From sequence record MN850564.1: 64,000 bases of DNA; one strand, written 5' to 3'. The position numbers and the translations under genes were made by a program. Below the pieces are notes generated by a model. It was not told the origin of the DNA. It made no database searches and saw only the letters and a list, made by a program, of their open reading frames with translations. Of the stretch, positions 4,611 through 64,000 are shown in pieces. This stretch comes from Escherichia phage humlepung. The first letter of the stretch is position 1. Each line of letters starts with the position of its first letter.

Positions 4611-5057
4611 ATGGCTATGTATCAGCAATATTCCCCTAAAGACGTTGTATGTAGCTGGAACGGCATTGCTATTGAAGGCTTTGCTCCAGACTCATTCTTG
4701 CGTCTACAGAGAACATCACCACTTGTGACACCAGTTGTTGGTGCAGGTGGTCAGGTTGCTCTGACACGAAATGCAGACAAGACAGGTACTATTGAGATTG
4801 AGCTAATGCAGACTTCTCTCTCTAACCAGATGCTTTCTGCAATTCAAGCTAAACAAGACAATATGGAACTTGAAGAAGATATCTCTTCTAACTTCGTAAT
4901 CTACGACCCATCAGGCTCTGTTCTGGCAACTGGTATTAACGCTTGGTTGCAGGAGTTACCACAGATTGAACTTGGTCGTGACCAGAACTCTAAAACTTGG
5001 ATTTTTGGTTGTGAGAAGTTAGACTACACTTCTACAATTCCAGCGTCAAGTGTTTAA
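4611..5057 (+). CDS. tail tube protein (putative)
   Basis: 148 aa between sheath and chaperone genes; followed by a strong terminator. Confidence 0.5.
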   Translation: MAMYQQYSPKDVVCSWNGIAIEGFAPDSFLRLQRTSPLVTPVVGAGGQVALTRNADKTGTIEIELMQTSLSNQMLSAIQAKQDNMELEEDISSNFVIYDPSGSVLATGINAWLQELPQIELGRDQNSKTWIFGCEKLDYTSTIPASSV

Positions 5058-5069
5058 TAAATCCTATAA

Positions 5070-5103
5070 GGGGGAGACTTTAAAAGGTCTTCCCCTTTTT
5101 TGT
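5070..5103 (+). terminator. rho-independent terminator after tube gene
   Basis: GGGGGAGAC...GTCTTCCCC hairpin followed by T8. Confidence 0.6.
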
Positions 5104-5129
5104 TTCTTTTAAAGTATTAAGGAATCACA

Positions 5130-5528
5130 ATGAAAACAGAATCTAGAGTAATTAATGGTAAGAAAGTAAATATCGTTCTGCTTGGGGCAAGAGATGGTAT
5201 TAAGATGTCTATGAAGTTGGGTAAGATTGTTGTCCCAACCTTTGCACAGATGCTATCAAGTCTGACTGACAAGGGTAAGAAAGAAGCTCCAATGGTTCCA
5301 TTTAAAGAACTTGTTGAAGCTTGTTTTGACAGAATTGAAGAAATTAACCTTGAAGAGATGGCTACCCTGCTGTTTCAAGGGGCAACTGTTGATGACTTCC
5401 CACTTAATATTGATACGTACTTCCAAGCAAACTACGGTGAGTTTATTGATTACTTAGCATTTGCGCTGGAGGCAAACTTCGGAAGTTTTTTCGAAGCAAG
5501 CATTTTCAAAAGCCTAACTTCTCAGTAA
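5130..5528 (+). CDS. tail assembly chaperone (G-like, putative)
   Basis: 132 aa between tube and tape measure; RBS AAGGAA; contains T6C slippery run near its 3-prime end. Confidence 0.45.
   Translation: MKTESRVINGKKVNIVLLGARDGIKMSMKLGKIVVPTFAQMLSSLTDKGKKEAPMVPFKELVEACFDRIEEINLEEMATLLFQGATVDDFPLNIDTYFQANYGEFIDYLAFALEANFGSFFEASIFKSLTSQ
5486..5492 (+). other. candidate -1 programmed frameshift site T_TTT_TTC
   Basis: Heptamer in frame 0 of 5130..5528; the -1 frame is open from 5450 to 5770. Confidence 0.35.
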
Positions 5529-5530
5529 AC

Positions 5531-5769
5531 ATGGGTAACACTCTACAGACACCACTAACTGATGCTGCTGTAGAGGCAACCTATGAAGAAGCAGACGAGA
5601 TGAAATTTGTGCTTGCTATTTATGGTATGGAAGGGTGTAAAGAAACACTTGACCAACTCTTTGCTATGACATTCTCTGATTTATTATCATTGAGACAATT
5701 TCTTGAGATTCAGAGGTCGTATAAAGAGGAAATTGCTTACAACGAACTTAGAAGAGCAGGAAAAATGTA

Positions 5770-5770: not shown

Positions 5771-13768
<7,998 letters not shown>

Positions 13769-14919: not shown

Positions 14920-14928
14920 TTTCTTTAC

Positions 14929-14950
14929 AGGGGCTGTATAGCCCCTTTTA
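14929..14950 (+). terminator. hairpin terminator between the two fibre genes
   Basis: AGGGGCTGTATAGCCCCT followed by TTTT; preceded by the CTTTACAG motif shared with the downstream cassette family. Confidence 0.45.
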
Positions 14951-24230: not shown

Positions 24231-24281
24231 AATCCCTCCTATACAAGATGTAGTATAAGGTACTCTTCCCTGAGCACCTTG

Positions 24282-43358: not shown

Positions 43359-43378
43359 CCTTATGTAAAACTTGACAA

Positions 43379-43417
43379 GGTGATGTGGGTCTTGATAGGC
43401 TTACATCACCTTTTTTA
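43379..43417 (+). terminator. rho-independent terminator
   Basis: GGTGATGT...ACATCACC hairpin followed by T6. Confidence 0.55.
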
Positions 43418-52003: not shown

Positions 52004-52008
52004 AGTGT

Positions 52009-52038
52009 TTGACAAGGGGCTTCGAAGCCCCTTAGAAT
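52009..52038 (+). promoter_or_regulatory. promoter TTGACA-N18-TAGAAT with perfect GC palindrome in the spacer
   Basis: -35 TTGACA, spacer contains GGGGCTTCGAAGCCCC (doubles as hairpin after rIIA), -10 TAGAAT. Confidence 0.45.
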
Positions 52039-52082
52039 AGCCTTACAAAATGATTTATTAACTAACAAGAGAGAGTAATAAG

Positions 52083-57331: not shown

Positions 57332-57405
57332 GAAACTTCGTAGCATATTCACAATAGACTAAGCCTTTCTTATCTGGTAAATTTTTTCAGGTAAGGAGGG
57401 CTTTT

Positions 57406-57585
57406 TCATTTTAGAATTGTGCAGGTAGAGTTATGTAGAGAAATCTATAGAGAAAATTTTGAACTCCAAAGAGAAAATTCATTTTCAAACTGTGCAGGTA
57501 ATCTCCAAAGAGCTTTTTCATTTTCAAAACGTGCAGACCCCGCTCAGGTCGGGCAAGAAAAATCATTTTAGAATTGTGCAGGTAG
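57406..57585 (+). repeat. iteron-like direct repeats (4 copies of ~23 bp TCATTTT(A/C)(G/A)AA(T/C)(T/C)GTGCAGGTA)
   Basis: Copies at 57406, 57479, 57518, 57563; copies 1 and 4 identical; CTCCAAAGAG also repeated. Confidence 0.6.
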
Positions 57586-57600
57586 GTTTTTATAGACAGC

Positions 57601-57640
57601 CAGCCCAACCCCTCTCCCCCTCTTACTCCCCCTCTCCCCA
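57601..57640 (+). repeat. polypyrimidine C-rich tract
   Basis: CAGCCCAACCCCTCTCCCCCTCTTACTCCCCCTCTCCCC, between iterons and strong promoter. Confidence 0.5.
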
Positions 57641-57760
57641 AAAGTCAAGAGAAAAATTTGTAGCGGATTGAAAAATAATTCTTGATTTGCGTTCTGTTTT
57701 GTGGTAGTCGTGCGCACCCGTTTCATTACAGTTTTGCCAAAAATATTTTTAAGATTTTTA

Positions 57761-57852
57761 TTGACTCTTTGAACGTGGTTATCTAATATTTACATCAACG
57801 GGGAGGGAATGACCTTCCCCACTAAATAAAATCCTAAACTGGAGATTCAAAA
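57761..57852 (+). promoter_or_regulatory. cassette type 1 (promoter TTGACT-N17-TAATAT, 5-prime hairpin, conserved leader with GGAG)
   Basis: Hairpin GGGGAGGGAATGACCTTCCCC at 57800-57820; leader ACTAAATAAAATCCTAAACTGGAGATTCAAAAATG. Confidence 0.65.
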
Positions 57853-58236
57853 ATGGCATACCGCGCACCGAAATTCATCAATAAAGAAAATTTTCGTAAT
57901 GTATTAGAGAAGGTGCTTGATGAAAAATTTAACGGCAAAATAATTGTTGTTCACGCATACAATTTCAAGTATGATATCAACGGGAATAAAATCAACCATT
58001 ACACGGCAACTATGTTAGATGGCAATCTTTCAAGTGAAAAAGCCGTACTGAATGCACTTGCCGGACGTGGAAAAAACCTGATAAGATGCGATAAGAGACG
58101 TTATCAGGGTGGCGCATATGGTTACGATGATGCTATTTATCATCTTGAAAATATGGGCTATCAAGTAGAAAAAGCTGGAGTATCACAAATCATCGGCAGT
58201 GATGGCTATGTAACAATCTTCAAAATTAACAAATAA
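57853..58236 (+). CDS. cassette gene A, hypothetical
   Basis: 127 aa; starts ATG GCA in conserved leader. Confidence 0.55.
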   Translation: MAYRAPKFINKENFRNVLEKVLDEKFNGKIIVVHAYNFKYDINGNKINHYTATMLDGNLSSEKAVLNALAGRGKNLIRCDKRRYQGGAYGYDDAIYHLENMGYQVEKAGVSQIIGSDGYVTIFKINK

Positions 58237-58322
58237 AGTACTTTACAGGGGGCTTATAGTTCGATAAAGTAAGCCCCAGATAAAGAGCTTTACCACTAAA
58301 TCCTAAATTGGAGAACTTAAAA
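58234..58322 (+). repeat. cassette type 2 (palindrome TAAAGTACTTTA, hairpin, conserved leader)
   Basis: Palindrome begins with upstream stop codon; hairpin GGGGCTTATAGTTCGATAAAGTAAGCCCC without U-tract; shared leader/SD. Confidence 0.6.
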
Positions 58323-58613
58323 ATGGCTATTATCAAAAACGTTGTAATTCCCGCAAAAACTCGTGATGACGCTCGCATCATGGCGAAAAAGTTAGGCGGG
58401 AAAGTGGTTGACAATGGAAAACAATCTGCTGTAAGATGGGGTGTGAAGGCTGATAAACAGTTGAAGTTAAAAAATTCACCGATAAACCTTTTTACATGTG
58501 TAAACACTATCGGGAAGACAAATGTATACACGAAAAAAGCATATATTAGACGCGTAGCATTAACATCCCCCATTCGTACAATGAGAAGTTATGCAAAGCT
58601 GAAAATTAACTGA
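58323..58613 (+). CDS. cassette gene B, small basic protein
   Basis: ATG 58323 (track start is TTG); 96 aa; MAII N-terminus. Confidence 0.5.
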   Translation: MAIIKNVVIPAKTRDDARIMAKKLGGKVVDNGKQSAVRWGVKADKQLKLKNSPINLFTCVNTIGKTNVYTKKAYIRRVALTSPIRTMRSYAKLKIN

Positions 58614-58700
58614 TAAAGTACTTTACAGGGGGCTTAAAAGTTGGTATCTTAAGCCCCAGATAAAGAGCTTTACCACTAAATCCTAAACTGGAGATTCAAA
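58614..58700 (+). repeat. cassette type 2
   Basis: TAAAGTACTTTA palindrome; hairpin GGGGCTTAA...TTAAGCCCC with changed loop; conserved leader. Confidence 0.6.
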
Positions 58701-59213
58701 ATGAAAACTGTAGACGCTACTTTTGAAGTTGTAAAAGAAAAATTCACTATTATTTATGAAGCGGTAAATTGCTACGAAGCAAGCCATAATCTTGATAATT
58801 GGAAGTTTACAGATGACCATCAAGGCGGCGTGACTGTTAAAAACCCTAACTGTCAGCGTAACGATTTTAAATATGCAATCCCTTTAAATTATAGCCTTAA
58901 ACAGCTTTCTAGTGACTATGCAAAACAAGGCCGGGAAAATCCATCAAAAGAGGCTTACGCAAGCTTACAGAAAGAACTAGAAAGAGATTTAGAGGCTTCA
59001 GAGTACAACCTTGCCGCGAAAGTTGTCGATGCAAACGGTAACACGGTTTTAGAAAGTTTTTATCTTGGTTATGCTTTCGATTGGTGCTATAGTGACGGTG
59101 ATGATTTAGAGGAAAGACTAAAAGAAGAGGTGAGCAATTCAGACGCAGAAACTGAAGTATTAGAACGTTTGGAATCGTTGAAAGACTCAGTGATGAATAT
59201 CTTTAAGAACTAA
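58701..59213 (+). CDS. cassette gene C, acidic hypothetical protein
   Basis: 170 aa; acidic C-terminal half. Confidence 0.5.
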   Translation: MKTVDATFEVVKEKFTIIYEAVNCYEASHNLDNWKFTDDHQGGVTVKNPNCQRNDFKYAIPLNYSLKQLSSDYAKQGRENPSKEAYASLQKELERDLEASEYNLAAKVVDANGNTVLESFYLGYAFDWCYSDGDDLEERLKEEVSNSDAETEVLERLESLKDSVMNIFKN

Positions 59214-59305
59214 ATAGATTTCTTTACACGGGGTTATCAAGCTGGTAAGATAGCCCCAGATAAAGAGATTTATCAAATAAAGCCCTTAAACTAGGAGATT
59301 CTAAA
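59214..59305 (+). repeat. cassette type 2 (diverged copy)
   Basis: CTTTACACGGGGTTATC...GATAGCCCCAGATAAAGAG; hairpin retained with a G-U pair. Confidence 0.45.
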
Positions 59306-59602
59306 ATGAAATTATCAAATCAAGTGCGTGAAAATCTGAGCAAATTACTCAACAAAATTGATTTTATCGAGACATCAAGAAATAATCATGATGTTATGGA
59401 ATGGTTGCACGGCAAAATAAAAGGCCGTCGCGTAGTGATTTGCTTATGGAATAGTTGCAGGGAGTATAAAAAACCTGTATTGCAAGTAAATATTTATGAT
59501 GATACTTTTAAAAGTCCAGTAAAGTCTAAAAGTGACTTATTAGAATCCTATGAGATAACTGTAAATGGCAAAGTATCACGTAAAGAGGAAACACCATGTT
59601 AA
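59306..59602 (+). CDS. cassette gene D, hypothetical
   Basis: 98 aa. Confidence 0.5.
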   Translation: MKLSNQVRENLSKLLNKIDFIETSRNNHDVMEWLHGKIKGRRVVICLWNSCREYKKPVLQVNIYDDTFKSPVKSKSDLLESYEITVNGKVSRKEETPC

Positions 59603-59928
59603 TGACTGGCATCACCGCAATCCTTGCCATTTTCGCGCTATATAAGGCATATAAAGCCTATAATCTAGCAAATAAGGCAATCACGCAACAGGTCAATAAT
59701 AGCTTTGTAATGAGCTTTCTGGAGCGTTTAAGTGATGAACAAATAAAACGGTTAGAAATGAGCTTCAGATTTCAATCAAAAACTTATCAAATCAGCGACA
59801 TTTTCAAAGATGATTTTCAGTTAGTCGATGATTATAATTCTCTGATAAATGCTTTAAATGTCAGTGACTTAAAAGACTACTACGCTGTAATTGTTCAAGA
59901 ATTGAGCAAACGAAAAAATTCCTCTTGA
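59596..59928 (+). CDS. cassette gene E, membrane-anchored protein
   Basis: 110 aa; N-terminal TM segment ITAILAIFALY; coupled to gene D. Confidence 0.45.
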   Translation: MLMTGITAILAIFALYKAYKAYNLANKAITQQVNNSFVMSFLERLSDEQIKRLEMSFRFQSKTYQISDIFKDDFQLVDDYNSLINALNVSDLKDYYAVIVQELSKRKNSS

Positions 59929-60015
59929 TTTTGGTTTTTAAAACAAGTAAATTACTAATCAACGGGAGGTAATAACCTCCCCACTAAGTAAAGTCCTTAA
60001 ACTAGGAGATTCAAA
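59925..60015 (+). promoter_or_regulatory. cassette type 1 (TTGATT-N17-TAAATT, hairpin, leader)
   Basis: Hairpin GGGAGGTAATAACCTCCC (compensatory changes on both arms); conserved leader. Confidence 0.6.
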
Positions 60016-60288
60016 ATGTACACTACTAACAACGGTCGCACCTTAAACGTAACCATTCGTCACTATGTGAACGGTGTAATGCACTTCGAAGATTTACAAG
60101 CCGAACAACATATCTTAGATTGGCAACTTGCAGGACTACAAAAAACTGCTACAGGATACGGGAAAAAGATTCCAACCAGTTGGAAAGTATACTACGAAGG
60201 CCGTTTGCGCAGAATTTATCAGGATGTGCAAAGCAATAGCGCATCGAGTTACATCATAGTAAAAGGTAAAAAGCTGCATTTAGTGTAA
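60016..60288 (+). CDS. cassette gene F, hypothetical
   Basis: 90 aa. Confidence 0.5.
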   Translation: MYTTNNGRTLNVTIRHYVNGVMHFEDLQAEQHILDWQLAGLQKTATGYGKKIPTSWKVYYEGRLRRIYQDVQSNSASSYIIVKGKKLHLV

Positions 60289-60374
60289 AGTACTTTACAG
60301 GGGGCTTATAGTTCGATAAAGTAAGCCCCAGATAAAGAGCTTTACCACTAAATCCTAAATTGGAGAACTTAAAA
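60286..60374 (+). repeat. cassette type 2
   Basis: Near-identical to copy at 58234 (stop TAA embedded in palindrome). Confidence 0.6.
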
Positions 60375-60779
60375 ATGGCTATTAATAACCGTGAATTATC
60401 AATCTTAAAAGCACGTTTGACCGTTAACCGGATTAATGTTATCACGTCATCAGCGCCTGATGAGACATTGCACAACATTATCGGGAAGATTCAAAGCGTT
60501 ATCTTAGACGTTGAAAACGTAAAAAAATCATTGGCTGACGTTGCATCAGGTATCACGCTAGACGGCGCACAATATGAAATGGCTGACATGTTAGGCAAAT
60601 CAAAGATAATGAATAAAGAGCTTGATTTAAAAATGTTTCGATTTGCTGTTAAAGTATGGCTATCCGTCGAGTATGACGCTAATTTTGCAATCGCTGATTT
60701 CTTTGCCACTTGGTTACAACGTAATTTGACAAATCACGATTTTCGTGATGTCTGTGATGCAATTTATGCAGAACTCTAA
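60375..60779 (+). CDS. cassette gene G, hypothetical
   Basis: ATG 60375 (track start TTG); 134 aa; MAIN N-terminus. Confidence 0.5.
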   Translation: MAINNRELSILKARLTVNRINVITSSAPDETLHNIIGKIQSVILDVENVKKSLADVASGITLDGAQYEMADMLGKSKIMNKELDLKMFRFAVKVWLSVEYDANFAIADFFATWLQRNLTNHDFRDVCDAIYAEL

Positions 60780-60787
60780 AAATTTTG

Positions 60788-60879
60788 TTGACACCGGTTT
60801 TTAGATAGATTAAATTACACATCAACGGGGAGGGAGTGACCTTCCCCACTAAGTAAAGTCCTAAACTGGAGATTCTAAA
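60788..60879 (+). promoter_or_regulatory. cassette type 1 (TTGACA-N17-TAAATT, hairpin, leader)
   Basis: Hairpin GGGGAGGGAGTGACCTTCCCC. Confidence 0.65.
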
Positions 60880-61083
60880 ATGGCTATTATTAACGGCTTA
60901 AACATTGAAACTACACACATCAAAGATATCAAAGTTGGCGATATAGTCCTTTCCCACGGCGTAGAAAAAACTGTCACTACAAAGGATATCAAAGAGGATT
61001 CTTTCATGGGTAGGACTCTCTTCGGTGATTCTTATTGCTTAGGGTATCTTGCAGTCTTAAAAGTTGTCAAAAATAACAAATAA
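60880..61083 (+). CDS. cassette gene H, small hypothetical
   Basis: 67 aa; MAII N-terminus. Confidence 0.5.
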   Translation: MAIINGLNIETTHIKDIKVGDIVLSHGVEKTVTTKDIKEDSFMGRTLFGDSYCLGYLAVLKVVKNNK

Positions 61084-61169
61084 AGTACTTTACAAGGGGC
61101 TTATAGTTCGATAAAGTAAGCCCCAGATAAAGAGCTTTACCACTAAATCCTAAACTGGAGATTCAAAAA
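61081..61169 (+). repeat. cassette type 2
   Basis: TAAAGTACTTTACAAGGGGCTTATAGTTCGATAAAGTAAGCCCC...leader. Confidence 0.6.
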
Positions 61170-61712
61170 ATGAAATGCTTTCACGGTACTACTCAAGAAA
61201 ACTTTATCAACCTGATTAATAATGGTGATAAGCCATCAGGTGCATGGAATTGTTCGGATATGGACGGCAATTTTTACGTGTACCCAGAAAATAAAATCTA
61301 TGGCGACGATGAGGAAGAGATAATCTCTGAAGGTATCCAGCAAGCGTTAGGTAATGCCACTATTACGGCCGCTTTCCAGATGAAAACCCAAAATATTGTT
61401 ATCTTAGAACTTGATATCCCAGAGGATGACCTAAATGACGATTATTCTTGTGATAATATGTCTGGCGTAGCAAGTTTTACAGAATACTTCGATTTAAATT
61501 GGATTAAAAAGGTTTACGTAACAGAGTTTAACGCTATGTATTCGCCTTTTTGTCTTCCTTCATTGGATAACCCAAATTTAAATTATCTTGATGAGTCTCT
61601 GGAGCTTCTTGCTAAAAGTGTCCAACAGTCGGACAGTATTCAGGTTTTTTGTGACATCATGGACACACTAACGGGAAACATCGCAGAAGAGGATTTAAAG
61701 AGCTTTTTCTAA
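61170..61712 (+). CDS. cassette gene I, acidic hypothetical protein
   Basis: 180 aa. Confidence 0.5.
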   Translation: MKCFHGTTQENFINLINNGDKPSGAWNCSDMDGNFYVYPENKIYGDDEEEIISEGIQQALGNATITAAFQMKTQNIVILELDIPEDDLNDDYSCDNMSGVASFTEYFDLNWIKKVYVTEFNAMYSPFCLPSLDNPNLNYLDESLELLAKSVQQSDSIQVFCDIMDTLTGNIAEEDLKSFF

Positions 61713-61744
61713 AAACCTATGCAATCGCCTTATAAACACTGATT

Positions 61745-61764
61745 AGCCCCTCACAGGGGCTTTT
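61745..61764 (+). terminator. rho-independent terminator
   Basis: GCCCC-TCACA-GGGGC followed by TTTT. Confidence 0.5.
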
Positions 61765-61778
61765 AAGAGGCTTAAATC

Positions 61779-62012
61779 ATGCTTACAACCGTTTATCTTA
61801 TCCTTTCTATTTGTAATGGTCATTCATGTGATTTTAAAGGGCTTGAGGAGTTTACAGGAAGTAAAGAAAATGCTGTTCAGGTCTGTCAGATAGCAAGGCA
61901 AGACTACCCCGCCAGTGATGACATACAATGTTACTTTAAGACAGAAGATGAAGATGGTATCTATTTCGATAGTGTAGACGGTCAATATGAAATAATTATA
62001 GAAAAAGACTAG
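61779..62012 (+). CDS. cassette gene J, small Cys-containing protein
   Basis: 77 aa; RBS AAGAGG. Confidence 0.45.
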   Translation: MLTTVYLILSICNGHSCDFKGLEEFTGSKENAVQVCQIARQDYPASDDIQCYFKTEDEDGIYFDSVDGQYEIIIEKD

Positions 62013-62102
62013 ACAAGCCTGATAAAAATCTGTAAATTACTAATCAACGGGGAGGGAATGACCTTCCCCACTAAACAAAATCCTAAACTGGAGATTCAAA
62101 AA
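62010..62102 (+). promoter_or_regulatory. cassette type 1 (TAGACA-N17-TAAATT, hairpin, leader)
   Basis: Hairpin GGGGAGGGAATGACCTTCCCC at 62049-62069. Confidence 0.6.
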
Positions 62103-62444
62103 ATGGCTTATGTAACCGTAATTACCGATAAAGCTGGCGCATCTTGGTCAACTCAGGTTAGTGATAAGATGTCGCCTATGCAGTGCCTAAAATACTTTGA
62201 ACAGTGGAACAAAGGCGAGGACACAAGCCCCTTTCACGTAATGCAGATTATTCATGTAGACAATGAAGGGAAGAAAACAACTCTGAATAGTGAGTACTAC
62301 GCAAGCCGTTTTGAAACGAGAAGTAAAGCAATGAAGCTCTTACGTGAGGCCGGATATGGTCACATTGCCGCGATAATCTGGGATGACCTTCTAAAAAGTC
62401 AACGTATCAGCTATGTAAAGCCTGAAAAAATATTCATCAGTTAA
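62103..62444 (+). CDS. cassette gene K, hypothetical
   Basis: ATG 62103 (track ORF starts inside the hairpin at 62058); 113 aa. Confidence 0.5.
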   Translation: MAYVTVITDKAGASWSTQVSDKMSPMQCLKYFEQWNKGEDTSPFHVMQIIHVDNEGKKTTLNSEYYASRFETRSKAMKLLREAGYGHIAAIIWDDLLKSQRISYVKPEKIFIS

Positions 62445-62573
62445 TCAATAACTTACAAAAAACTTTTAAAAAAGTGTTGACAATACCCCTTGACATTGGT
62501 AACTTTGTTCGAGGGGGTTTATCTAAAAGGGATTCACTTAAAAGATTCTTTATAGATAAGCTTAAAAAATTGC

Positions 62574-62663
62574 TTGCAATCAGCTATCAAAACAAGTAAA
62601 TTACTAATCAACGGGAGGGATGACCTCCCCACTAAATAAAATCCTTAAACTAGGAGAGTCAAA
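62574..62663 (+). promoter_or_regulatory. cassette type 1 (TTGCAA-N17-TAAATT, hairpin, leader)
   Basis: Hairpin GGGAGGGATGACCTCCCC; additional TTGACA motifs at 62475-62495 upstream. Confidence 0.6.
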
Positions 62664-63194
62664 ATGAACAAGTTTAAAGCTATCAACTTCATTCGTTCAA
62701 ATGCTGTAATGTCAAAACCTGTAAAAGACACATACGAATTTCGCTGCAATGGGGTACACTTTGCAACCATCACTAAGTCAGAAAACGGGGCTTATTACGT
62801 ACATCGTCGTAATGTTGCAACCGTTGTAGTCTCTCACTTTATGCAAGCTGTAGCGGAGTTATTACCGTTATTCTTAGAGATTTATCTAGGTGAGTGTAAA
62901 AACGTTCGTAACCACGTTAAAAACCTTTTAAACGGTTATAAAATGGCTTATGAACGTTCTATCAAGTCCTTGAACAAGTTCTATAAATCCCCTGTAAATA
63001 CTGTTTCAATGGCTTACACTGTAAGCGGTGAGTTGGTTAGCCTCTTCGAAGTAGAAGAAATTGAACTATATGACTCACGTCCTAGCGGTTACTCTAAGAC
63101 ACTGGGAGAAGGATTATCTTTCAATATCAAGAACTTAGAAAAAACTTTAAAAGATATTGAAAAAGATATTGACGAGACAATCAAAAGTCTGTAA
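62664..63194 (+). CDS. cassette gene L, hypothetical
   Basis: 176 aa. Confidence 0.5.
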   Translation: MNKFKAINFIRSNAVMSKPVKDTYEFRCNGVHFATITKSENGAYYVHRRNVATVVVSHFMQAVAELLPLFLEIYLGECKNVRNHVKNLLNGYKMAYERSIKSLNKFYKSPVNTVSMAYTVSGELVSLFEVEEIELYDSRPSGYSKTLGEGLSFNIKNLEKTLKDIEKDIDETIKSL

Positions 63195-63260
63195 ATTGTC
63201 AATCAACGGGGAGGGAATGACCTTCCCCACTAAATGAAGTCCTAAACTGGAGATTCTAAA
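63169..63260 (+). promoter_or_regulatory. cassette type 1 (TTGACG-N17-TAAATT, hairpin, leader); -35 lies inside the 3-prime end of gene L
   Basis: Hairpin GGGGAGGGAATGACCTTCCCC at 63208-63228. Confidence 0.6.
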
Positions 63261-63509: not shown

Positions 63510-63547
63510 ACGCCGCAACGGGGCTAAATAGCCCCAGATACCTTTAC

Positions 63548-63575
63548 AGCCCCTTTCCCATAGGGGCTTTTTTAC
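63548..63575 (+). terminator. rho-independent terminator closing the cassette array
   Basis: AGCCCC...GGGGCT followed by T6; preceded by a type-2-like hairpin GGGGCTAAATAGCCCCAGATA. Confidence 0.55.
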
Positions 63576-64000
63576 GTCTTATCAAATCCCTTATACAACC
63601 CTTTCCCTTTCCTTTCCAGAATCTTATCAGACCTTAAAAAGCAATAACTCTATAGTCTACTCTATAGCCTTTTATCAAATCAACTTAAATATAAGCCCAT
63701 AACCCGAAAGGGAAGGGCAACCGTTTAAACGCTCTATAAAGCTCTATAACAGCCTTATCAACCTAACTTAAGGGATTGCATTAACTCACCCTAAAAAGCC
63801 CTTTATAAAGCTTCCCAGAGACTTAAAAGAATCTTATAAGGGTGTAAGCTTTATTATCTCGTTAGCTATCTTGTGAACTACTAAACAAGCCCCTTGATAG
63901 TAACTGAAAAGTATGTTATAGGGGCTTTAAAGTTACTTTGAAGTGGCTTAAAAGTTACGTAAATGCTAGCCCCCTTAACATTTTCTTAACAATTTCTTAA
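63576..64000. repeat. non-coding repeat-rich region (CTTATCA x5, CTCTATA x4, AAGTTAC x2)
   Basis: No ORF of 60 aa or more on either strand; short direct repeats and pyrimidine-rich tracts. Confidence 0.5.

Follow-up and report, generated by a model that had tools for sequence, protein, structure and literature searches.

Why should the same inverted repeat return between one small early gene of a phage and the next? The question is raised by the 57.7–63.6 kb region of Escherichia phage humlepung (sequence record MN850564.1), which we analyzed as part of a window of 64,000 nt, the window being the whole stretch of DNA under study. The region is an early small-gene array equivalent to genes 14–23 of phage Felix O1. 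It matches 255–298 phage records, the best of which are Felixounavirus genomes at 92–97% identity, and contains 13 small genes, all on the + strand and annotated as hypothetical. Every gap of the array is occupied by one of two kinds of cassette, six of type 1 and five of type 2 within 5.8 kb, and the two kinds have a leader and ribosome-site tail in common (CACTAAAT..TCCTAAACTGGAGATTCAAAAATG). The six type-1 cassettes consist of a strong promoter (TTGACA-N17-TAAATT) followed by a hairpin in the 5′ leader. The type-2 cassette, which is our subject here, joins a palindrome to a hairpin that has no U-tract. Our analysis suggests that it is probably a composite linker of ~90 bp, which would provide the early array with a promoter, an RNA hairpin and homology for recombination.

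The perfect 12-bp palindrome TAAAGTACTTTA is present at exactly four sites (58234, 58614, 60286 and 61081), as the original prediction had stated. The chance expectation is 0.41 even with one mismatch permitted, and four sites were reached in none of 100 shuffles. The upstream stop codon was also correctly placed: the TAA of the open reading frames (ORFs) 57853..58236, 60016..60288 and 60880..61083 is the start of the palindrome in three of the four copies, and in the remaining one ORF 58308..58613 ends with a TGA one base earlier. All four palindromes are followed by the hairpin GGGGCTTA...TAAGCCCC and then by AGATAAAGAGCTTTACC, without a T-run. Four is the number of palindromic copies but not of cassettes, since a fifth, divergent copy at 59214–59273 had been overlooked. 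A covariance model built from relatives retrieved exactly five copies in the window, all on the + strand, with E values from 2e-19 to 5e-16; a search of the whole window against Rfam gave no match at the gathering score. Two further recurrences of the motif, claimed at 14921–14950 and 63520–63575, did not hold up. The model assigns them E values of only 4.2 and 5.3, they carry T-runs, and they correspond to the Felix O1 terminators t76 and t23. These sites have a GC hairpin and a CTTTACA-like string in common with the cassette and are not copies of it; the hairpin at 63548 has the reverse polarity (GCCCC...GGGGC).

Folding showed the palindrome to be the 5′ arm of a composite hairpin of 59–63 nt, whose partner arm, AGATAAAGAGCTTTA, lies downstream. 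From base to top, this hairpin comprises a lower stem (TAAAGT/GCTTTA), a 1×1 mismatch, a middle stem (CTTTA/TAAAG), a 3×3 internal loop (CAG/AGA) and a 9-bp upper stem capped by an apical loop of 10–11 nt. The helix amounts to 20 bp (6+5+9) in four copies and to 22 bp (13+9) in the copy at 59214, and the fold is adopted by all five window copies at −21.6 to −30 kcal/mol (z from −3.2 to −7.8). Comparison with homologous phages, which had been proposed as a check, found the cassette in three genera of the Ounavirinae (Felixounavirus, Mooglevirus and Kolesnikvirus), with 3–7 copies per genome, which without exception lie on the array's sense strand. The resulting set comprised 108 distinct copies drawn from one scan of viral contigs and from nine annotated genomes; structure was tested on an alignment of 76 distinct sequences with 500 shuffles. 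At least 18 bp formed in 75 of the 76 folds.

The alignment distinguishes the long hairpin from a pair of local palindromes. Under the long-hairpin model, 98.0% of cells form a standard pair, compared with 32–59% in slid controls, and 23 cells have changes on both sides, located at three pairs: G-C to U-A at columns 22/48 and 9/61, and U-A to A-U at 5/65. None of the 500 shuffles equalled either the observed pairing or the covariation score. Under the model of two local palindromes the proportion of paired cells drops to 83.9%, no double change occurs, and 466 of the 500 shuffles equal the observed pairing. These results bear on one of the roles proposed originally, that of an operator, in which TAAAGTACTTTA and TAAAGAGCTTTA would flank the −35 element and the +1 position, bind a dimeric protein of phage or host, and thereby shut off early transcription. 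A perfect 12-mer palindrome in four copies would suit such a role, as would the bracketing of the promoter by two half-palindromic sites and the retention of TAAAG..CTTTA in most relatives. However, covariation is found between the arms and not within the palindromes. The family of the 59214 copy is without any palindrome, and the lower stem of that copy pairs perfectly over 13 bp; in the second site, the central pair matches in 0 of the 76 sequences. Moreover, the changes at columns 9 and 61 disrupt both palindromes yet restore pairing from arm to arm, so that the palindrome appears to be a by-product of the helix. We therefore rejected the operator reading, to which we attach almost no probability.

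Frequent G.U pairs are confined to the sense strand, where U.G alternates with C-G at 24/46 and predominates at 10/60, a pattern that points to a sense RNA. The helix, at 20 or 22 bp, has about the two helical turns (~20 bp) of double-stranded RNA expected of an RNase III site, in which internal loops are tolerated. An RNA processing site was among the roles proposed originally, and an element acting as RNA only was considered, namely an intercistronic processing or stability site for RNase III or another endonuclease, whose promoter hexamers would be incidental or constrained by the RNA. Besides the length of the helix and the strand bias of the G.U pairs, this interpretation draws on the symmetric 3×3 internal loop with its invariant 3′ side ((A/T)GA), on the lack of a U-tract after the hairpin, and on the recurrence of the element from one intercistronic gap to the next within an early unit that true terminators enclose. 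The early RNase III sites of phage T7 fold comparably, with an upper stem of 9–13 bp and a short lower stem in three of the five, in a comparison that is qualitative only: the RefSeq annotation of T7 marks no RNase III sites, and the folded windows were set by site positions that reportedly come from Dunn and Studier. On the other side, no sequence similarity to the T7 sites was noticed on inspection without alignment, and several properties of the predicted embedded promoter have no explanation in an RNA site.

A promoter scan picks up TTTACA-N17-TAAAGT/TATCTT, and all five copies have the form TTTACA-N17-TAAAGT/TATCTT/TAAGAT. The upper stem GGGGCTTA/TAAGCCCC opens 1–2 nt after the −35 element, and the −10 element lies in its loop and 3′ arm. 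When the 108 distinct copies were anchored on the −35 element, TTTACA proved essentially invariant, including the unpaired CA, which an RNA-only site leaves unaccounted for. T-12 is present in 90% of these copies, A-11 in 93%, T-7 in 93% and G-14 in 84%, and the majority base accounts for only 31–51% at each of the three middle hexamer positions. The fixation of T-12, A-11 and G-14 at 17–18 nt from TTTACA, while neighboring loop positions drift, is likewise unexplained by RNA function. Changes of one base in loop length leave the −35/−10 register intact. Among 38 distinct copies from nine genomes that were chosen by the covariance model of the structure, and thus not selected on the promoter, TAnnnT stands at 17 or 18 nt in 37, through 12 different hexamers. 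About half of the copies have the extended −10 TG (TGnTAnnnT). To judge from sequence, the conservation profile is that of an (extended) sigma-70 −10 element and not that of a free hairpin loop. The suggestion of a promoter spanning the hairpin is therefore supported beyond its first formulation, the comparative data revealing selection at sigma-70 contact positions. Its description as cryptic or weak is probably an understatement, because TTTACA is a −35 element of the type found in the PeSL (promoter-early stem-loop) cassettes of T4-like phages and about half of the copies carry the TG. TTTACW is the −35 type of the T4/PST-type PeSL early promoters (PMC4122927).

The −35 and −10 boxes also stand in the same register around unrelated hairpins, both in the window (52008, 43371 and, on the − strand, 24280) and in relatives (Kolesnikvirus FIfi106 at 8111, 10599 and 12605; Mooglevirus KMM4 at ~11040), a further observation that an RNA-only element does not explain. 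Overlap of promoter and hairpin seems to be a general habit of phage humlepung. The site at 24280–24257 (− strand) is a single-copy TTGACA-AGGTGCTCAGGGAAGAG-TACCTT with a GC hairpin as its spacer. That at 43371–43416 (+ strand) is a true terminator with a 12-bp stem and TTTTTT; TTGACA abuts the stem and an extended −10 element, TGATAGGCT, lies in the loop. A T4 MotA box in GAGCTTTA was judged by eye and discarded, as the only suitably spaced −10 element would put the start inside or after the Shine-Dalgarno (SD) sequence.

The element has a counterpart in Felix O1, where a 57-bp "direct repeat" was listed in 2010 with no structure, promoter or function (Whichard 2010, PMC3185647). This repeat, CTTTACATGGGGCTTAAAAGTCTGTAAAGTAAGCCCCAGATAAAGAGCTTTACCACT, located between genes 15/16 and 19/20, is the same element, and our covariance model recovers both copies together with a third in FO1a. 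By reverse transcription PCR (RT-PCR), Felix O1 genes 16 and 20, which lie directly 3′ of the repeat, peak at 5 min, and gene 19, which lies 5′ of one repeat, peaks at 25 min (PMC3185647). These timings fit either an independent promoter or a differential fate of the RNA at the cassette, and the difference between genes 19 and 20 across the element counts against an RNA-only site, which we consider unlikely overall. The Felix O1 study describes the organization of the transcription units, as well as secondary promoters and read-through, as "not known" (PMC3185647).

A leaky intrinsic terminator or attenuator had also been proposed. The GC hairpin would then curb read-through from the strong type-1 promoters and limit downstream expression. 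In its favor, a stable GC-rich stem stands directly after the stop codon, and there is no canonical terminator between 57407 and 63548 despite six strong promoters; in addition, one PeSL stem-loop cut lacZ expression as much as rrnB T1 (PMC2839356). However, the U-tract is absent: the upper stem is followed by AGATAAAGAG, with 1 T in 8 bases, and CCACTAAATCC comes after the full helix. The type-2 sites are absent from the output of the terminator scan. The same phage has textbook U-tract terminators at the ends of its units (57365, 63548, 55001 and 14929), the first two being homologues of Felix O1 t13 (57365–57407) and t23 (63548–63574) that delimit the array, and the type-1 cassettes put a similar U-less hairpin 3′ of their own promoter, an arrangement that would be self-defeating if it terminated transcription. 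Efficient intrinsic termination is therefore unlikely, and we regard attenuation as the principal function of the cassette as improbable.

When the array was compared pairwise with five Felixounavirus and two Mooglevirus genomes, all indel breakpoints fell in cassettes, and the alignments often overlapped in the repeat. VpaE1 lacks the gene 58701–59213, the break falling between two type-2 copies with an overlapping alignment of 96 nt; FO1a lacks 57748–58615 and 60885–62033; and AYO145A and SeKF_63 have extra genes inserted at 63191–63252 and 57821–57859. A multicopy element with all observed breakpoints in its cassettes and with overlapping alignments might be a neutral or selfish repeat, spreading or persisting as recombination homology or as a mobile linker with no regulatory role. 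Position-specific conservation across three genera, with covarying stems, conserved promoter positions and freely varying loop positions, would not be expected of such a repeat, and we find this explanation scarcely credible.

We thus favor the composite linker, in which three functions would be superimposed. As DNA, the cassette would be a host sigma-70 promoter, with the −35 TTTACA in the 5′ arm of the hairpin and the −10 element in the apical loop and 3′ arm, and would act as a secondary early promoter. Initiation would take place at the A or G just past the upper stem, between CCCC and AGATAAAG; for copy 1, spacing predicts a start at ~58278, at the A of AGATAAAG, and for copies 2–5 the predicted starts are at ~58658, ~59259, ~60330 and ~61125. 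Since this start would lie directly after the upper stem, RNA from the embedded promoter would lack the hairpin and retain only the shared leader and the GGAG site. Read-through RNA from upstream promoters, in turn, would fold into a 20–22 bp helix that begins at the upstream stop codon. With its RNase III-type geometry, this helix may be a processing or 3′-end-stabilizing element that uncouples the cistrons, and a weak attenuator at most. Among its possible roles as RNA, processing or 3′-end stabilization, possibly with some attenuation, appears most likely, ahead of termination. Finally, because the same cassette recurs between genes, it would supply homology for the gain, loss and swap of early genes.

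A more closely coupled version can be formulated, although we think it rather doubtful. The cassette would be a dual-route device that combines the promoter with a two-turn RNA helix cut in the invariant internal loop, on its 3′ side (AGA). This cleavage point would almost coincide with the predicted promoter start, so that the downstream gene would have one 5′ end, whether initiated or processed, and the upstream message would retain the GC hairpin as a 3′ cap. With the stop codon in the lower stem, a ribosome that terminates there would open both this stem and the middle one, and helix formation, hence processing, would be coupled to translation of the upstream gene.

Several observations weigh against the composite linker. 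Regarding the promoter, the −10 hexamers match TATAAT at only 3–4 of 6 positions, a promoter scan of the whole region did not rise above shuffles (31 found versus 24.8 expected), and the conservation of T-7 is not independent evidence because this base lies in the stem. The internal-loop 3′ side, (A/T)GA, is also invariant and poorly explained by a promoter model. Regarding the RNA, the sense fold is better than the antisense fold by only 1.7 kcal/mol on average (51 of 76 sequences); the strand assignment consequently rests mainly on the G.U pattern, and the inverted repeat may have a role at the level of DNA. The copies are kin by descent; the covariation reflects few independent compensatory events, and only Kolesnikvirus has the G-C to U-A change at 22/48. 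The indel evidence is supportive but not decisive, because selection for intact genes also favors intergenic breakpoints. The Felix O1 RT-PCR was an end-point, semi-quantitative assay (PMC3185647), and our literature search found neither a Felixounavirus transcript map nor Felixounavirus promoter studies.

The positions of the cassettes and of related features are compiled in Table 1. In every type-2 copy, GGAG sits 10–13 nt 5′ of the ATG, and the type-1 cassettes end in the same tail as the type-2 leader. The ORF list starts 58308..58613 and 60360..60779 at TTG codons within the cassette tail; their true starts are almost certainly ATG 58323 and ATG 60375, after GGAG. Across the cassette tails at 57839–63250, all early genes have one ribosome site, CTGGAGA or CTAGGAGA, with GGAG as its core. 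In phage T4, GGAG is what the endoribonuclease RegB targets in early messages.

Table 1. Type-2 cassettes of phage humlepung and associated features; positions refer to the window.
Feature	Position	Strand	Details
Type-2 copy 1, hairpin	58234..58292	+	Lower stem TAAAGT/GCTTTA, 1×1 mismatch, middle stem CTTTA/TAAAG, 3×3 loop; upper stem 9 bp, loop 11 nt; opens with TAA stop of 57853..58236; fold −22.4 kcal/mol, z=−4.7; covariance model 89.6 bits, E=3.6e-19
Type-2 copy 1, predicted sigma-70 promoter	58242..58270	+	−35 TTTACA 58242–58247, 17-nt spacer, −10 TAAAGT 58265–58270
Type-2 copy 1, leader and ribosome-site tail	58293..58325	+	CCACTAAATCCTAAATTGGAGAACTTAAAAATG; SD GGAG 58310–58313; ATG 58323 of gene 58323..58613
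Type-2 copy 2	58612..58674	+	TTTACA 58622–58627, TGG and TATCTT 58645–58650; E=7.8e-19
Type-2 copy 2, flanks		+	TGA stop of upstream gene 58611–58613; SD 58690–58693; ATG 58701
Type-2 copy 3, divergent	59214..59273	+	TTTACA 59223–59228, N17, TGG and TAAGAT 59246–59251; unbroken 13-bp lower stem, 3×3 loop, 9-bp upper stem GGGGTTATC/GATAGCCCC; fold −25.2 kcal/mol, z=−4.9; E=5e-16
Type-2 copy 3, flank		+	SD 59294–59297; ATG 59306
Type-2 copy 4	60285..60345	+	TTTACA 60294–60299, TAAAGT 60317–60322; SD 60362–60365; ATG 60375; lower stem contains TAA stop of 60016..60288; E=2.3e-18; −30 kcal/mol including flanks
Type-2 copy 5	61081..61139	+	TTTACA 61089–61094, TAAAGT 61112–61117; SD 61157–61160; ATG 61170; lower stem contains TAA stop of 60880..61083; E=2.4e-19
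Type-1 cassette (context)	57761..57852	+	TTGACT-N17-TAATAT, then leader hairpin GGGGAGGGAATGACCTTCCCC 57800–57820, then ribosome-site tail as in type 2
Other type-1 promoters	59925–59953, 60788–60816, 62010–62038, 62574–62602, 63169–63197	+	
Canonical U-tract terminator, t13 homologue	57365..57407	+	Upstream boundary of early array
Canonical U-tract terminator, t23 homologue	63548..63574	+	End of array; preceded at 63520–63540 by short hairpin GGGGCTAAATAGCCCC plus AGATA, which is not type 2
Ordinary terminator between tail-fibre genes, t76 homologue	14929..14950	+	CTTTACA on the 5′ side; lacks a suitably spaced −10; E=4.2
Unrelated promoter/hairpin	52008..52043	+	TTGACA, hairpin AGGGGCTTCGAAGCCCCT as 18-nt spacer, TAGAAT; 5′ of gene from 52084; E=0.036

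Three non-coding segments in and around the array have features of their own. In the gap 57332–57760, four direct repeats of the form ~TTTTCATTTT(A/C)RAAYTGTGCAGGT stand at intervals of ~40–85 bp and precede a C-rich tract, CCAGCCCAACCCCTCTCCCCCTCTTACTCCCCCTCTCCCC (57393–57640). The repeats and the C-tract are kept 5′ of the early array in Mooglevirus KMM4 (5057–5559) and Kolesnikvirus FIfi106 (6010–6470); they resemble iterons or regulator sites, and the segment is possibly an origin or an entry point for early transcription. At 62445–62570 (+ strand), an unusually long gap of 220 nt contains two overlapping TTGACA boxes and the hairpin CCCCTTGACATTGGTAACTTTGTTCGAGGGG, with TAACTT at −10 distance, and then ~90 nt without an ORF. 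This region, which is kept in Mooglevirus KMM4 (10455–10649), may encode a small RNA or be regulatory. After the last terminator, 63575–64000 is non-coding, with short repeats CTCTATA(G/A) and CTTATCA, and probably lies near the genome end or a terminal repeat; the terminal repeat of UAB_Phi87 is 608 bp (PMC4837284).

Phages of the Felix O1 type are widely used in typing, biocontrol and therapy of Salmonella and E. coli, and also as a model (Bas63). Neither the Bas63 PhageMaP preprint nor the UAB_Phi87 paper contains anything on these elements. A repeat that had merely been listed can now be read as a map of predicted secondary early promoters and intercistronic RNA hairpins. The cassettes would also mark the sites at which early genes for host takeover or anti-defense are exchanged, a help in engineering and in making sense of variation in gene content.

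Among known elements, intrinsic terminators have in common with the type-2 cassette a GC-rich hairpin directly after the stop codon, whereas the cassette lacks their defining U-tract. The early RNase III sites of T7 (R0.3, R0.5, R1, R1.1 and R1.3) are closer, being repeated, mutually similar, U-less intercistronic hairpins of ~60 nt, with the second short stem, where it forms, placed below the internal loop. The upstream message retains from them a 3′ hairpin that protects it, and they are not known to contain a host promoter. The type-2 cassette differs from them in its long apical loop of 10–13 nt, its symmetric internal loop and its predicted host promoter.

The closest parallel is with the PeSL cassettes known from the T4-like phages RB49/phi1, PST/T4 and nt-1/KVP40 (Arbiol 2010, PMC2839356; Comeau 2014, PMC4122927). 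In both kinds of element, an early promoter of the sigma-70 type has a GC stem-loop placed between its −35 and −10 elements or over the −10, an SD sequence and start codon stand at the 3′ end of the motif, and an A/T-rich stretch lies upstream. Both occur in many copies among small ORFan genes and bound indels between close relatives, in keeping with modular shuffling, and the TTTACW-type −35 element is that of the PST/T4 pair. Promoter and terminator activity as well as mini-circles have been demonstrated for PeSLs; the type-2 cassette is known here from its sequence. The humlepung-type cassette differs in belonging to another subfamily, the Ounavirinae, for which our literature search found no report of PeSL-type elements, in having an extended −10 TG in about half of its copies, and in a stem-loop that is 11–13 bp longer, with a 20–22 bp helix that runs from the upstream stop codon. 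No resemblance was seen to the PeSL stem-loop motifs as quoted in the paper, in a comparison made without alignment of PeSL sequences. With an architecture that matches feature by feature, the best reading of the type-2 cassette is that of a PeSL-like composite of promoter and stem-loop. The presence of the T4-type PeSL architecture in an unrelated myovirus subfamily as well suggests that the logic by which small early genes are insulated and shuffled is convergent or widely shared.

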